A stretch of 64,000 bases of DNA from a virus: IMG/VR virus record IMGVR_UViG_3300032093_000013; one strand, given 5' to 3'. Below are positions 1 to 5,084 of the stretch, one piece after another (position 1 is the first letter of the stretch; the number at the start of each line of letters is the position of its first letter). Below the pieces are notes generated by a model. It was not told the origin of the DNA. It searched no databases and was given only the letters and a program-made list of their open reading frames with translations. The translations under genes were made by a program, and so were the position numbers.

Positions 1-1717
1 CCATATTTGTTTGCTGTGGTGGTGCAGACATTTGCACTTCAGATGTTGTGTTAAATGGTGCAAATTTACTATATTTGTTTAGTGGGTCAAATTTACCAGT
101 TAAAGTACCACCATTCCATCCAGTTCCAGTTTCCCAGTGCAAATGAGGTCCACTAGTTCTTCCACTCATTCCAACTTTGCCAATTACCTCACCTTTTTTA
201 ACTGGACCACTGCGTTTATATCCAGATTGCATATGCCCATATAAATGGTAAATTCCAAGATTATCTCTCATTACTAAAAAGTTTCCCCATCCGTTTTCAT
301 AATCAGAATCAACAATAACACCATCAGAAACAGCCCTTAATGAGGTGCCTTGTTTAACTGCTAAATCGGATCCACCATGTGTTCGTGTCCCCCTTAATTC
401 CCCATACCTACTTGTTATAATTGGGGTAATTCCTCTAGATGAAACTGCCTGTGTAGATTGTTGAGAAGTCTGAGCGGGACCTCCTTTTCTTTGCATATCT
501 AGAGCATCTCCCGCTGTTTCAGGTGATATACTAGCTCTATTTCTACCAACACCAGCATATCTAGATTGCCCACGAACTCTACCAGCTTCAGGATATTCTA
601 GACCAACTGAAGCAAATTCTCTTGCCAATTGTTGAATAGCTAATCTTCTATTATTTGATTTTCCATTAATATATGCACCAATTTCTGGTCTCTTTACATC
701 AATCAAATAATCAAACAGTCTGTTTTGAGTTGCAGAATTAAACTTAGCATTTAATGGAATTTTAGTATGTCTAACCGCACCAGCTAAAGTGACGGGAATA
801 AATTGATATTTACCAACTGCAAAAACTCTATTTTCTTTTTGAGCTTGCATAATTTCACCAACTGTCATATCAGTTAGGTTTTTGCCAAAAATAGATTTTG
901 CACCACCTGGAGTATCACCAGCATTTCCCCTATTAACTGAATTAAGTCCACCCTCACCCTTTACAACTAAGGATGCCAATTCGGGATATTTTGTCCCACC
1001 CCCTGAAGTCACGGTGCCACCACTGTAAGGTGGTGGTTCTGCATAAGCACCTTCATTAGTTTGCTGTGTGCCCACTTCAGGAATCTTTTCTCCACTATAC
1101 TTACCTTCTGTGAGTGGAGTTGTTAATAGTCCAAATGCTTCTTCAATTTGACTTGTAAGGTTTTCCATCGTAAAGTTCAAATCACTCATTGCAGTTTTGA
1201 CACGGTTTGAAGTATCAAAGAAATCAAACTGCAATAGATTTTGACCAAGTGCTCCTAAAATATTTCCAACATTAACAAACAATCTAATGGTGTTATTAAA
1301 AAATCCTGAAAGAATTTGACCTGCTTTTTGAATTCTTGCAACAAACTCTTTACCCATTGCAATCCAAGTCGGAAGATTATTCATCAACCACCCAGCAGAT
1401 AAGTATCCAATAAATCCTAAAATTCGATTAAAAAACCCCCCCACGCCTGCTGATTGAGTAAGTTGTTGAGGACCACCAAGACTAATAGCAACTCTTGGCG
1501 CTTCAAGTTCATCCTCAAGCATCATTCTTTTTTCATTTTCTTCTCTTCTTTTTCTAAAAAGATTTGTCTGTGCAAATGATTCTCTTTTAACTTTAGTTCT
1601 TTTTAGAATAACCTGACCAATATTTTTTACAGAGCTTCGTGCTTCAGTGACTTTCTTTTGAGAATCACTTGCCGAAGTCGTAACTTTTTTTAAATTTAGA
1701 GGAGATGCTACTACCAT
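1..1717 (-). CDS. Virion/baseplate-hub protein with lysozyme-like domain and M23 peptidase domain (3' end runs off window)
   Basis: Not in the ORF track; read manually from ATG at 1717 (MVVASPLNLKK). Contains EGGLNSVNRG...MTVGEI...AVGKYQFIP (lysozyme-like) and the M23 motifs THGGSD and GPHLHWE in the same frame. Confidence 0.8.
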   Translation of the reverse strand, partial: MVVASPLNLKKVTTSASDSQKKVTEARSSVKNIGQVILKRTKVKRESFAQTNLFRKRREENEKRMMLEDELEAPRVAISLGGPQQLTQSAGVGGFFNRILGFIGYLSAGWLMNNLPTWIAMGKEFVARIQKAGQILSGFFNNTIRLFVNVGNILGALGQNLLQFDFFDTSNRVKTAMSDLNFTMENLTSQIEEAFGLLTTPLTEGKYSGEKIPEVGTQQTNEGAYAEPPPYSGGTVTSGGGTKYPELASLVVKGEGGLNSVNRGNAGDTPGGAKSIFGKNLTDMTVGEIMQAQKENRVFAVGKYQFIPVTLAGAVRHTKIPLNAKFNSATQNRLFDYLIDVKRPEIGAYINGKSNNRRLAIQQLAREFASVGLEYPEAGRVRGQSRYAGVGRNRASISPETAGDALDMQRKGGPAQTSQQSTQAVSSRGITPIITSRYGELRGTRTHGGSDLAVKQGTSLRAVSDGVIVDSDYENGWGNFLVMRDNLGIYHLYGHMQSGYKRSGPVKKGEVIGKVGMSGRTSGPHLHWETGTGWNGGTLTGKFDPLNKYSKFAPFNTTSEVQMSAPPQQTNM

Positions 1718-1718
1718 A

Positions 1719-3326
1719 TCACATCACCACATTATAATTCATTTGTGAATAAAGCACATAAAAATTATCAGTATTGGAAGATGGTATGAATGGCACATCA
1801 GTCAATGGTTCTTGTTGTGCTACCATTGTTTGTGTTCTATCTCTACCACCACCTGCCATAATAATATTTGCCTTTGCTTCAGGTAATGTTCCAACAGGAG
1901 TAGTTGGTTTTGGTGGTGCCTGCATGTTTGCCGCTGGTTTTTCTTGAATCAATCCTTCGATATTTAATGTTCCGTAAGGAGATGCTGTTTCTTGTGCTAA
2001 AGGTTGTGCTGGTGCCTGTAACATATTTGCAGTATCCACACTGAATTTCATTTCAGATGCTGGCGGCATTGCTGGTGTTTGTGGTTGTGATGGAGACACT
2101 TTTGCTGCTGTTGGTGTTGGTGTTGGCGCATTATCTTTTTTCTTACCCAAGAATGTTCCTTCAAAAGCACCATACTCTCTTGCAATGTCAACACCTAAAG
2201 CAGGAAGTCCGATAATTGGGACAGCAGATGCGTAGGACAACAATCCGCCCGTGATATCTCCTTTTGCAATTCTGTAAGTTCCAACTCCAAGTGCTATAGG
2301 AGCAAAAAGTTTAGAAGCAACATTTCCAGCTCCCCTTAAAACTCCTTGAGCACCTTTTCCAATATTTCCAATTCCACCTAAAAACCTTCCCAAAGGTCCG
2401 CTTCTACTCAAAACTCTTCCACCACTTGTAGTAATGGGAGTCCTACCACCAGCACCTGTAATTGCTCTTGCTGCCCCTCTACCAAGTCCAAGCAACCCAC
2501 CAATTGCTGACCCTGCTAATCTAAAAGGTGCTAAAGCAATTCTAGCAACAAGTGCCCCCAATCTCAATGTTAATCCAGTAATCGTTCTCATTAAGAGACC
2601 GAATCCTATTTTAACAGCAGCAAAAGCACCTATTGCATATAAAACATTCTTAATAACATTATTCTTAATTTCTTCAAGTTTTTTACTATTTCCTTCAGTC
2701 AGTGCTTTTAAGGTTTCAATACCTTGATTTGTAAGCCATCCAAAGAATAATGTTGTCAGAGACCCCATAATACGGTCAAACAAACTTGTAATGGTTTGTT
2801 GAAGTTTGAGTATTGGTCTTGCAAGTGCCGCTTGAATTCCTCTTTCAAGAGCACTTTCTTTACCAAGACGAATTTTACGCTCTGCTAATCTTCTTTCTTG
2901 TTCTTGCTCTTGCTTGAGTTGATTTTGCTCAACAGCACTTTCTGCTTGCAATAATTTGGCAGTGTTTTGCACTCCCTGATTTAAGTCGGTGACTTGCACA
3001 CGAATCACATCAAGACTCTGCTGAAGACCGCCAACTGTTTGTTGAGTTGTTTGAATGCTTAAGTCTTGTGCTCTATCAACTAAACTAACTTGAGGTCTAA
3101 CTACAATTGCTGTGCCAGTAGTGGCGCCAGCACCGCCACCTCCTCCACCTACTCCAGCACTACCTCCACCGCCAGAGACTACACGCCCACCAAAAACAGT
3201 TCTTGGGAGGGTTGTAATTCTACCTAAAGAAAATTTTTGAAGGGTAATTCTTTCTGTGCCAGTATAATACCCACCACCCGGTTTTTCACCTGTTTGTGCT
3301 CTTAAACCAGCTTCTGCCCTATCCAT
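1719..3326 (-). CDS. Probable baseplate hub / tail length determinant (gp29-like)
   Basis: 535 aa with coiled-coil and Gly/Ala-rich helical segments; lies directly downstream of gp26-gp51 as in T4-like cyanophages. Confidence 0.55.
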   Translation of the reverse strand: MDRAEAGLRAQTGEKPGGGYYTGTERITLQKFSLGRITTLPRTVFGGRVVSGGGGSAGVGGGGGGAGATTGTAIVVRPQVSLVDRAQDLSIQTTQQTVGGLQQSLDVIRVQVTDLNQGVQNTAKLLQAESAVEQNQLKQEQEQERRLAERKIRLGKESALERGIQAALARPILKLQQTITSLFDRIMGSLTTLFFGWLTNQGIETLKALTEGNSKKLEEIKNNVIKNVLYAIGAFAAVKIGFGLLMRTITGLTLRLGALVARIALAPFRLAGSAIGGLLGLGRGAARAITGAGGRTPITTSGGRVLSRSGPLGRFLGGIGNIGKGAQGVLRGAGNVASKLFAPIALGVGTYRIAKGDITGGLLSYASAVPIIGLPALGVDIAREYGAFEGTFLGKKKDNAPTPTPTAAKVSPSQPQTPAMPPASEMKFSVDTANMLQAPAQPLAQETASPYGTLNIEGLIQEKPAANMQAPPKPTTPVGTLPEAKANIIMAGGGRDRTQTMVAQQEPLTDVPFIPSSNTDNFYVLYSQMNYNVVM

Positions 3327-3492
3327 TCGCTTGATTCTTCAGGGTTTCCTCTTCAATATATTGTTGGAGAAGAGTAATATAAACCTCCCTTTCCCAAGGA
3401 ATCATATTTTCCAACTCTGTTAATGAATATTTATGGTGCTGAATCAAGGCAAAGTTTGTCTTGTAGTATGATGCAAGGTCTTCGTGCATCAT
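3319..3492 (-). CDS. gp51: Baseplate hub assembly chaperone gp51-like (57 aa; possibly made as a -1 frameshift extension of gp26)
   Basis: Manual translation MMHEDLASYYKTNFALIQHHKYSLTELENMIPWEREVYITLLQQYIEEE; typical short cyanophage gp51 signature (ENMxPWER). Confidence 0.85.
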   Translation of the reverse strand: MMHEDLASYYKTNFALIQHHKYSLTELENMIPWEREVYITLLQQYIEEETLKNQANG

Positions 3493-3507
3493 TCCTAGGC
3501 GAAAAAA
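3468..3507 (-). promoter_or_regulatory. Putative -1 programmed ribosomal frameshift signal (slippery heptamer plus stem-loop)
   Basis: U UUU UUC at 3507-3501 in the last codons of gp26, an 8-nt spacer, then an 8-bp hairpin AUGAUGCA/UGCAUCAU; the -1 frame is the gp51 frame. Confidence 0.65.
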
Positions 3508-4214
3508 CTTGTTAGACCCTCCAATACTACTTCACTTTCCACTTCAGTATTTGGATTTGTAACTTTAATAGTATGAGAAAGTTTAGGCATTGTTTCAAAA
3601 AACTTTTCAATGTCTTTAAACTGTTGAGAAGTTAGTTGCTCAAGAAATTCCTTAAGTTCTTTTTTTGTTACATCAGAAGATGACCAAGACTCTTCTTCAC
3701 TATAAATCTGCTCAATACAAGAGGTAATCATATCAAATGTTTCATCAACAGAAATTTCAGATCCAGCAATAAAATTACTCTTGACAAATTCTTGCATTGA
3801 TGGATATCTCATTCTCAAAGTTAAACTATCATCAAGTTTGATATCTCTCGAATGGTCTTCTCTAAACTCAACTTCAATATCATCTAGATTGATACTTACA
3901 GGAACTTGTGTATTTCCATCATCGGGACAAGTAATTAAAACATCAACGGTTTCACCAACAGATTTTCCACGAATGTTGAGGAACAAATATTCAATATCAA
4001 AAGTTGCAAGTTGCTCAATCTTAATTCCACGAGTAACAATGCAATTGCCAATTACTGTTTTTACTGCTTCAGCAATTTGCTTTGGGTCTTCACTTTCCAT
4101 TGCAATGATTAAAACCTTTTCTTCCTTCACAAGAAATGGGCGATACTTGATACTTTTCTTTAGAGAAGGAATTTCCAACTCATAGGTCGGTGTTGAAATT
4201 TTTGGTAAAGGCAT
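3495..4214 (-). CDS. gp26: Baseplate hub assembly protein gp26
   Basis: MPLPKI..YRPFLVKEEK..FDIEYLFLNIRGKSVGE..CPDD motifs; synteny. Confidence 0.9.
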   Translation of the reverse strand: MPLPKISTPTYELEIPSLKKSIKYRPFLVKEEKVLIIAMESEDPKQIAEAVKTVIGNCIVTRGIKIEQLATFDIEYLFLNIRGKSVGETVDVLITCPDDGNTQVPVSINLDDIEVEFREDHSRDIKLDDSLTLRMRYPSMQEFVKSNFIAGSEISVDETFDMITSCIEQIYSEEESWSSSDVTKKELKEFLEQLTSQQFKDIEKFFETMPKLSHTIKVTNPNTEVESEVVLEGLTSFFA

Positions 4215-4244: not shown

Positions 4245-5084
4245 TTAGAAGAGAGTTTCTGAGTTCGCTTGTGTAGATAATGGATTTGAAGATAAAGAAT
4301 CTGATGCTGACTGAAGTGCTTCGCTATTGCTTACTCCAAAAGTATAAGTTTCCTGAGATGCTCGGAAAACATCCTCTGCAGATTGTGGAGCCGATGGAAT
4401 ATTCTGCGGTTGAAGAGGATTGAGATTATTATTATTTCCGATAACAAATTGATTAAAGGAATTTGTTGCTCCAGCAATATAACGATCGTATTGAAAAGAA
4501 GCAGAAACTTTTAAAGTATCTGATGACGTATATGAAACAGGAACTGAACTTATGTTTAATGGAAACAACCCTCTAAAATTATATACAATCTCCCTTCGAT
4601 AATCCCTATCAAACTTAACTATTCTAACTTGATTTGCCTTATAATATTGGGGGTATTGCATTCTCACAAAATAATTACTGACATTTTGACTAATTGGTGC
4701 GTTTTCACCAATAAGACCTTGATTATTAAAAGACCCACTGGCAATAAATTCCATCCAACATTCTAAAAAGTTAAGCATTTGATAATCACTATCGACATAA
4801 AAATCTAGAGTGATTTCTGAATAGATTCTAGAGCTTGCAAACTTTTCTTGAACTCCCATATAATTTCCATCAACTGTAAAAGATCCTAATGATGTTGTTG
4901 GAAGCACAGCAGAGTAGCATAACAGACCAGCGCCTTCAGCAATAAATCTGGGATTGATTCCCCTTCTAGAAAGGTAAAACATCAACTCTGGAGGCAGCAT
5001 TCCAAATTGCACTTCATAATGAGAAGTTTGTGCAAGATTGGTTAGCAGTGGTTTAATATCCGATATTCTGCGAGGAAATGCCAC
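4245..5084 (-). CDS. Tail-tube-like baseplate protein (gp54-like tube initiator)
   Basis: Tail-tube-fold-like motifs (ITLDFYVD..FLECWMEFI..FPLNISSVPVSY..VSASFQY); lies between gp26 and gp4. Confidence 0.65.
   Translation of the reverse strand: MAFPRRISDIKPLLTNLAQTSHYEVQFGMLPPELMFYLSRRGINPRFIAEGAGLLCYSAVLPTTSLGSFTVDGNYMGVQEKFASSRIYSEITLDFYVDSDYQMLNFLECWMEFIASGSFNNQGLIGENAPISQNVSNYFVRMQYPQYYKANQVRIVKFDRDYRREIVYNFRGLFPLNISSVPVSYTSSDTLKVSASFQYDRYIAGATNSFNQFVIGNNNNLNPLQPQNIPSAPQSAEDVFRASQETYTFGVSNSEALQSASDSLSSNPLSTQANSETLF

Follow-up and report, generated by a model that had tools for sequence, protein, structure and literature searches.

The closest described systems to the locus treated here are recoded tail assembly chaperone genes of phages. 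In phage lambda, gpG and gpGT reportedly arise by a -1 frameshift that is conserved among tail assembly chaperone genes, a finding said to go back to Levin et al. in 1993 and to Xu, Hendrix and Duda in 2004 and summarised in PMC10885494. Phage P2, which has a contractile tail, is said to make E and E+E' by shifting to the -1 frame at a heptamer rich in T (reportedly T TTT TTG), and its chaperone gene reportedly lies between the tube and tape measure genes; both points are ascribed to Christie et al. in 2002. Escherichia coli dnaX, reportedly the subject of work by Larsen et al. in 1994, is said to combine a Shine-Dalgarno (SD)-like element about 10 nucleotides (nt) upstream, a slippery heptamer and a stem-loop 5-8 nt downstream. 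We have analysed a 64,000-nt stretch of viral DNA (IMG/VR record IMGVR_UViG_3300032093_000013), which as a whole is called the window here. Its minus strand carries a gene related to T4 gene 26, followed by a short open reading frame (ORF) of the kind that databases call cyanophage 'gp51'. We consider it likely that the two are joined by tandem -1 slippage of tRNA-Phe on U UUU UUC, with a hairpin and perhaps a GGAGG element aiding, and that a minor form of 298 amino acids (aa) is made beside a major form of 239 aa.

In T4 itself, gp26 (208 aa) and gp51 (249 aa) are hub assembly chaperones (Leiman et al. 2010, PMC3004832, Table 2). Cyanophage gp51 has been noted to be about 20% of the usual length (Sullivan et al. 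2010, PMC3037559), and cyanophages and vibriophages alike carry a 'gp51' of one fifth of the T4 length (PMC3037559). According to two papers that refer to it (PMC10885494, PMC12846349), the study of Vladimirov, Gautam and Davidson (Virology 2022) identified gp26/gp51 as tail assembly chaperones of T4-like phages. One of these two, on phage Adele (PMC12846349), cites Vladimirov et al. 2022 for poly-T -1 frameshift signals in 'TAC-N genes of T4-like phages'. The initial annotation of the window knew of no description of such a frameshift for T4-like phages; as these two papers represent the 2022 study, it apparently had been. The idea appears to be in print already, and the biology is an expected variation on a known theme.

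The gp26/gp51 junction of the window

The gp26-like gene ends in GGT CTA ACA AGT TTT TTC GCC TAG, with a single codon (GCC) between the heptamer and the stop. Read in the -1 frame from the heptamer on, the sequence gives FFRLGMMHEDLASYYK..., in the same frame as the ORF at 3319-3492, and the gap between the gp26-like gene and this ORF is 2 nt. The features of the junction are as follows.

3319-4214, minus strand: recoded gene as a whole, with a predicted long form of 298 aa (codons 1-238 read in frame 0, the rest in the -1 frame)
3495-4214, minus strand: gp26-like gene, 239 aa, short (0-frame) form of a tail/hub assembly chaperone
3522-3518, minus strand: GGAGG, SD-like, candidate upstream stimulator, 10 nt 5' of the heptamer
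3507-3501, minus strand: slippery heptamer T TTT TTC in X XXY YYZ phase, proposed -1 shift site
3495-3497, minus strand: TAG, gp26 0-frame stop, which shifted ribosomes are proposed to bypass
3468-3492, minus strand: hairpin with 8-bp stem and 9-nt loop, candidate downstream stimulator
3319-3507, minus strand: extension in the -1 frame, counting 62 codons from the slip site on (FFRLGMMHED...QANG), with its stop at 3319-3321
3319-3492, minus strand: 57-codon 'gp51' ORF inside the -1 frame extension

The heptamer near the gp26 end and an open -1 frame identical to that of gp51, giving a fusion of about 298 aa, had been described in the initial annotation; both are found in the sequence and its translation. 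The predicted fusion has 298 aa (236 + 62), and its junction peptide is ...GLTSFFRLGMMHEDLASYYK.

In the proposed mechanism, most ribosomes would read AGU UUU UUC GCC and stop at UAG, releasing the 239-aa short form. A minority would move one base back with tRNA-Phe on UUU in the P site and on UUC in the A site. Both tRNAs would re-pair with UUU UUU, and the shifted ribosomes would read CGC CUA GGA AUG AUG... past the 0-frame stop for 60 more codons, yielding the 298-aa long form. Slippage is probably favoured by the hairpin that begins 8 nt downstream, and perhaps also by pairing of GGAGG with the tail of 16S rRNA. The long form would thereby gain an additional C-terminal three-helix domain, the cyanophage 'gp51' of the databases. 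Short and long forms would be the counterparts of lambda gpG/gpGT and of T4 genes 26/51, and by analogy both may act together off the virion in building the hub, the tape measure and the tube initiation complex. We infer the occurrence of the slip, its rate, the roles of the stimulators and the partners of each domain.

Both parts of the predicted protein match baseplate families. The gp26-like protein matches PF12322 (T4_baseplate) with E 4.3e-76 and 255.9 bits (cut-off 24.5) over profile positions 2-219 of 219, and phrog_150 (baseplate hub) with E 1e-83; at E <= 0.001, the PF12322 family comprises 4667 representatives. The -1 extension matches phrog_634 (baseplate hub assembly catalyst, E 3e-28). 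Moreover, the C-terminal part of phrog_150, the profile of gp26, matches the -1 peptide at profile positions 231-278 (E 4e-7). The -1 extension is putatively a 'T'-like domain at the C-terminus of the long form. Among named phages, the closest relative of the gp26-like protein is found in the freshwater Synechococcus phage S-SRM01 (80% identity, 240-kb genome); IMG/VR contigs reach up to 85%.

T4 has an uninterrupted version of the same arrangement. In T4 gp51, residues 1-201 cover PF12322 from end to end (E 3.9e-52), while the alignment of residues 200-246 with the -1 peptide of the window starts at the second residue of that peptide (BLASTP E 2e-6). T4 gp51 is therefore a colinear counterpart of the predicted fusion, and T4 gp26 is the short form. 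In the window, the gp26-like and the C-terminal domain lie in different frames and there is no uninterrupted ORF of the T4 gp51 type. No fused form was found among the 150 best family representatives, complete cyanophage genomes have a single gp26-family locus (E <= 1e-5), and no second PF12322 copy occurs within the 64-kb window. Consequently, there is no other visible source of a long form. If the shift occurs, the gene of the window would work like a long-form gene of the T4 type.

Conservation of the heptamer and its flanking elements

The evidence that carries the frameshift comes from relatives at three distances. Thirteen annotated T4-like phages were sampled across the 689 phage records that hold a gp26 relative: the cyanophages S-SRM01, S-T4 and S-PM2, Caulobacter phage Cr30, Stenotrophomonas phage Ps15, Ochrobactrum phage OC, Pseudomonas phage Astolliot, Cronobacter phage LPCS28, Rhizobium phage Y68, Aeromonas phage G2, and the Vibrio phages 6E35.1a, KVP40 and D495. 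Twelve of these 13 distant phages have NNT TTT TT(C/T/G) followed by 0-1 codons and a stop, and their -1 frame stays open for about 60 codons and codes for a related peptide. Wherever an annotated relative has a downstream ORF (13 cases), the phase is -1, just as in the window. Among close relatives (80 IMG/VR loci with 64-85% gp26 identity), T TTT TTC stands one codon 5' of the stop in 80/80. The stop itself is TAG, TAA or TGA, and the codon before the two Phe codons of the heptamer is TCT, AGT, GCT, AAT or GAT, always with T as third base. A second clade, with about 46% identity to the window protein and commonly with Leu ('FL') endings, has T TTT TTN in 41/41 unique junctions (N being A in 25, C in 11, T in 4 and G in 1). 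Here the 0-frame residue switches between Phe and Leu, mostly Leu, with TTTTTT unchanged. In total, NNT TTT TTN is in phase at 121/121 IMG/VR junctions. The initial annotation had named a conserved TTTTTT(C/T) in -1 phase as the thing to look for, and it is present at all three distances, in the wider form TTTTTT(N).

Codon usage within gp26 points the same way. About 110 codon columns are conserved and degenerate, and only the two Phe columns of the heptamer have zero entropy (TTT 100%, TTC 100%); in the twelve remaining conserved Phe columns, both TTT and TTC occur. That TTTTTT is kept while the 0-frame residues change indicates selection for the nucleotides and not for the end of the protein. 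T4 provides the converse control for this selection, since its long form is a gene of its own and its gp26, which ends in EFFELL (L094:3803-4429, minus strand), spells FF as the non-slippery TTC TTT.

Downstream of the heptamer, the window has a hairpin with the 5' arm AUGAUGCA (3492-3485), a 9-nt loop and the 3' arm UGCAUCAU (3475-3468). It begins 8 nt past the heptamer and encloses both AUGs of the 'gp51' ORF, just as the initial annotation had it. The fold of the single sequence was dropped as evidence, its z-score at the junction being -1.8 only, and was replaced by controls within the gene and by covariation. For the former, the 42 nt starting 3 nt past the heptamer were compared with windows of the same size in each phage's own gp26. 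The junction stretch was more stable than at least 95% of its controls in 78% of 93 junctions. The junction of our window has -10.4 kcal/mol against a control mean of -3.8 kcal/mol, and no control window in its gp26 is as stable. Covariation was examined in an alignment of 53 junctions of the window's clade over a stem of 10 pairs. Cells of the stem are paired in 92%, compared with 25-43% when the 3' partner is slid. One pair is U-A in 25, G-C in 14 and A-U in 10 of the 53 aligned junctions, and it links a synonymous Ala wobble position to the second codon position of Glu/Ala/Val. A second double change in the stem, from C-G to U-A, is seen in the window.

The hairpin is specific to some clades, and different stems take its place in others. 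No such stem occurs in S-T4, OC, Astolliot, LPCS28, Y68 and Aeromonas G2. Some members of the clade with Leu in place of Met (junctions L129, L109, L117, L121, L132 and L155) have a different 7-bp hairpin about 6 nt past the heptamer, for example GGCUAUC-UCAC-GAUAGCC; other members have no stable stem. Of the expectation that the hairpin would covary across relatives, the covariation thus stood and the generality did not.

Upstream, GAGG is found exactly 10 nt 5' of the heptamer in 90/124 unique junctions, where about 0.003 would be expected per window, and GGAGG at the same 10-nt spacing in 50/124. The Glu codon of this element is GAG in 82% of the sequences, while other conserved Glu columns favour GAA. 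The evidence for GGAGG as a frameshift stimulator is suggestive only, because GAG GGN also codes for a conserved Glu-Gly. The window has the complete three-element layout known from dnaX, with an SD-like element, a heptamer and a stem-loop after a spacer of 8 nt.

The same fusion protein could be made without any slip of the ribosome, if the RNA polymerase added an extra U on the run of six Ts and a fraction of the mRNAs encoded it directly. The conserved element is indeed a homopolymeric T run, which reaches T7 in some relatives, and by sequence analysis such a protein is indistinguishable from the -1 ribosomal product. A run of six Ts is short for efficient polymerase slippage. Furthermore, the run always keeps the X XXY YYZ phase, which is relevant to re-pairing of tRNAs and not to a polymerase, and a structure 6-8 nt downstream with an SD-like element 10 nt upstream suits the stimulators of a ribosomal shift. 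We therefore regard slippage during transcription as very unlikely.

Separate initiation or fusion in the -1 frame

The -1 frame is conserved ahead of any start codon. Nearly all close relatives continue after the slip with CGN (Arg) as their first -1 codon, and 47/62 non-redundant peptides have Arg at this position. The 0-frame codon that overlaps it varies between Ala, Gly, Val, Glu and Ser. A conserved -1 Arg over a variable 0-frame codon implies that the -1 frame is under selection already upstream of the stop and any AUG. In the 62 non-redundant peptides, the -1 sequence is conserved from position 1 and His8 is invariant. At the junction column, Met and Leu alternate as ordinary residues. 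No AUG is present at the junction in S-T4, Ochrobactrum OC, Astolliot, LPCS28 and Aeromonas G2. Annotated downstream starts fall within the conserved region: S-T4 and OC are given a TTG or GTG start, Astolliot an internal ATG, and the downstream ORF of LPCS28 and Aeromonas G2 is unannotated.

These data bear on the conventional reading of two separate genes without recoding. According to it, gp26 stops at UAG, a ribosome that re-initiates or binds anew starts a free 57-aa gp51 at AUG 3492 or 3489, translation of gp26 opens the hairpin (translational coupling), and TTTTTTC merely reflects a conserved Ser/Asp-Phe-Phe C-terminus. In its favour, all 18 GenBank/RefSeq records inspected, including those of 2023-2025, show two genes or leave the downstream ORF unannotated. 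The window and most of its closest clade do have AUG AUG, and AGGA adjoins the first of them. The short gap or overlap (2 nt in the window; 1 nt in KVP40, Cr30 and Y68) is typical of coupling and brings the -1 phase automatically. Separate genes are difficult to reconcile with the -1 peptides, though, since in 27/62 of them (44%) the first Met comes at position 14 or later, past the invariant His8. Nor do they account for the conserved -1 Arg codon upstream of the stop, for the fixed wobble bases of three consecutive codons whose amino acids vary, or for the TTC TTT of T4, where no slip is needed. Homology with T4 gp51 begins at the slip site and not at an AUG. Finally, stable stems are present in some lineages that have no AUG to hide, which argues for a frameshift stimulator rather than for a mask of the start codon only. 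On balance, we find two independent genes improbable.

Several points nevertheless weigh against the frameshift. The heptamer by itself is at chance level (28 copies of TTTTTTC in the window against 31.7 expected) and is no evidence on its own. The significance of the junction rests on conservation in relatives, because neither the count of the heptamer nor the single-sequence fold is significant alone. At the protein level FF is conserved too, and T4 gp26 is no exception. The -1 phase alone is weak evidence, as common coupling overlaps (TAATG, ATGA) yield the same phase. Several lineages keep the heptamer without a hairpin, and a hairpin over a start codon is the classic arrangement of translational coupling. 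One of the 13 sampled phages, Vibrio phage D495, lacks the heptamer. Its gp26 ends in TCA CTT TTC AAG TAA, an ATG overlaps the stop (TAATGG; L008:3190-3400), and its -1 peptide is more divergent; D495 may have switched to initiating the peptide separately or to shifting at a different site. Last, a free 57-aa peptide is possible by independent or re-initiated translation, since AGGA abuts the first of the two AUGs (3492, 3489). This AGGA, which lacks a spacer, is the only SD-like element there, so the statement in the initial annotation that gp51 has no well-spaced SD is correct. Its further statement that gp51 is the frameshifted tail of gp26 is supported by the comparative evidence, with the reservation that free gp51 could be made from the AUGs alongside the fusion as an extra product.

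D495 also bears on the notion that the frameshift is real in relatives and a mere relic in the window, whose gp51 would have its own AUG, be made as a free small protein and be on its way to the separate-gene state of T4. Two junction AUGs are confined to the window's clade, and D495, which has apparently lost the heptamer, has an overlapping ATG. We consider such a relic highly unlikely, given that the heptamer, the wobble T before it, the spacing of the hairpin and the GGAGG are intact in the window and in all 80 closest relatives, and that the column of the supposed start is shared by Met and Leu. Moreover, a free 57-aa peptide would be without the gp26 domain that T4 gp51 retains.

The frameshift would explain why the 'gp51' of cyanophages and vibriophages has only one fifth of the expected length. 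The annotation would then be wrong or incomplete in all 18 records inspected, and probably in most of the 689 records with this gene. As a simple, very well conserved signature for annotation we suggest a PF12322 gene that ends in NNT TTT TTN and has about 60 open codons after it in the -1 frame. If the published work on T4-like phages omits the cyanophages, the 'core gene' gp51 would be an annotation artefact in hundreds of genomes, with a frameshifted gp26-gp51 fusion as the true product and a signal of three parts behind it, namely GGAGG at -10, U UUU UUN and the covarying hairpin. Clades with AUGs in the hairpin might add a free T-domain by coupled re-initiation and so obtain three products, their ratio being tuned by one RNA structure. 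We think this reading rather doubtful.

Neighbouring genes and comparison with known systems

The recoded gene is flanked by the following genes.

4245-5084, minus strand: tail-tube-family gene, 279 aa (PF23849 Phage_TTP_2, E 1.9e-15; phrog_45 tail tube, E 5e-38)
1719-3326, minus strand: 535-aa ORF, tape-measure candidate by position only
2-1717, minus strand: ORF with M23 peptidase domain

The 535-aa ORF starts, with its ATG, inside the last 8 nt of the -1 extension (overlap 3319-3326, minus strand; ATGGATAG), and the long-form frame hence leads directly into the start of the next gene. The initial annotation had called this ORF gp29-like. It has no significant similarity to T4 gp29 or to the Cr30 tape measure in BLASTP, it belongs to no Pfam, NCBIfam or PHROGs family, and its neighbours in the ESM Atlas are unnamed viral proteins, so that the name can be based on position only. 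Where it lies and how long it is would suit a tape measure, with a tube-family gene upstream of the chaperone, and the Cr30 record has a tape measure at the corresponding position, downstream by one small ORF more. S-PM2 has one ORF of 1167 aa (S-PM2d207; L003:3386-5714) at the place where the window has the 535-aa ORF and the M23 ORF of at least 572 aa. A tape measure with a lytic domain may have been split in the lineage of the window or fused in S-PM2. The ORFs upstream are heterogeneous among related loci. ARAGORN found no tRNA genes in the 64-kb window, and an Rfam scan of 3300-3700 gave only a chance CRISPR-repeat row (E 0.8).

Structure prediction lends the gp26-like protein a further link to tail assembly chaperones. 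Its AlphaFold model has a predicted local distance difference test (pLDDT) score of 94.9. In a search with VIA-align over 48,161 PDB representative chains, the top matches were 3fgx_B (Z 7.9), 2ob9_B, the bacteriophage HK97 tail assembly chaperone (Z 7.7), and 3klu_A, YqbN (Z 7.4), each aligning 85-86 residues on residues 1-95 of the model. We take 3fgx and 3klu to be chaperone relatives. The next match was 5ir0, an uncharacterised V. cholerae element protein (Z 4.9), and the first clearly unrelated row had 4.8. Foldseek in local mode matched the model to 2ob9_B with a probability of 0.72. Z values of 7-8 are within the range for which the tool warns of a common arrangement, a point to be set on the negative side of the balance. 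With such moderate Z values, the predicted fold of a tail assembly chaperone in the N-domain is to be read as support and not as proof. A PDB profile search with the gp26 family gave no significant match, nor did Foldseek in global mode (E <= 0.001) for gp26 or the 62-aa domain. The model of the 62-residue extension consists of three helices (pLDDT 77.6), for which the PDB holds no match.

Four Cys residues at positions 96, 100, 220 and 223 (CxxxC ... CPxC) are common to 53-77% of the members of the gp26 family and occur in T4 gp26 and gp51 as well. They look like a zinc ribbon. The gp26-like protein of the window retains Cys96 alone, with Gly, Asn and Thr at the other three positions, and the putative site seems to have been lost in its lineage.

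With a frameshift in gp26, T4-like phages would join the rule for long-tailed phages, by which a short and a long tail chaperone are made from one start. The resemblance to lambda gpG/gpGT lies in the shared N-terminus of short and long forms, in an X XXY YYZ heptamer near the end of the short ORF and in the place of the gene, after a tube-family gene and before a large gene of tape measure size. The predicted fold of the gp26 N-domain also resembles a solved tail assembly chaperone. Unlike lambda gpG, the gp26-like protein of the window is far larger (239 aa), with extra domains past residue 95, and there is no detectable sequence similarity between the two. The heptamer is U UUU UUC in the window and G GGA AAG in lambda, and the gene in the position of the lambda tape measure is a tape-measure candidate by place and size only. 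E/E+E' of P2 belong to a different protein family from gp26. The three-element signal recalls dnaX, the heptamer of which is A AAA AAG. There the shift ends at once and gives a shorter product, whereas in the window it would extend the protein; the GGAGG of the window, in contrast to the SD-like element of dnaX, doubles as codons of the conserved Glu-Gly.

Phage Adele (Pakpunavirus/Vandenendeviridae) is likewise a myovirus (PMC12846349) with an unannotated poly-T -1 frameshift where its short-form gene ends; it belongs to another phage family, and its motif is given as GTTTTT. The study of Vladimirov et al. 2022, as it is cited, concerns the same gp26/gp51 family and reads it as short and long chaperone too, whereas its title puts the emphasis on the non-frameshift, two-gene solution. 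That solution is the one of T4. T4 has, and the window would have, a pair made of a gp26 domain and a gp26 domain with C-terminal domain; both T4 proteins belong to PF12322. In T4, the pair is encoded by two divergently transcribed genes and gp26 is free of a slippery site; in the window, one gene with a proposed -1 shift would suffice for both.

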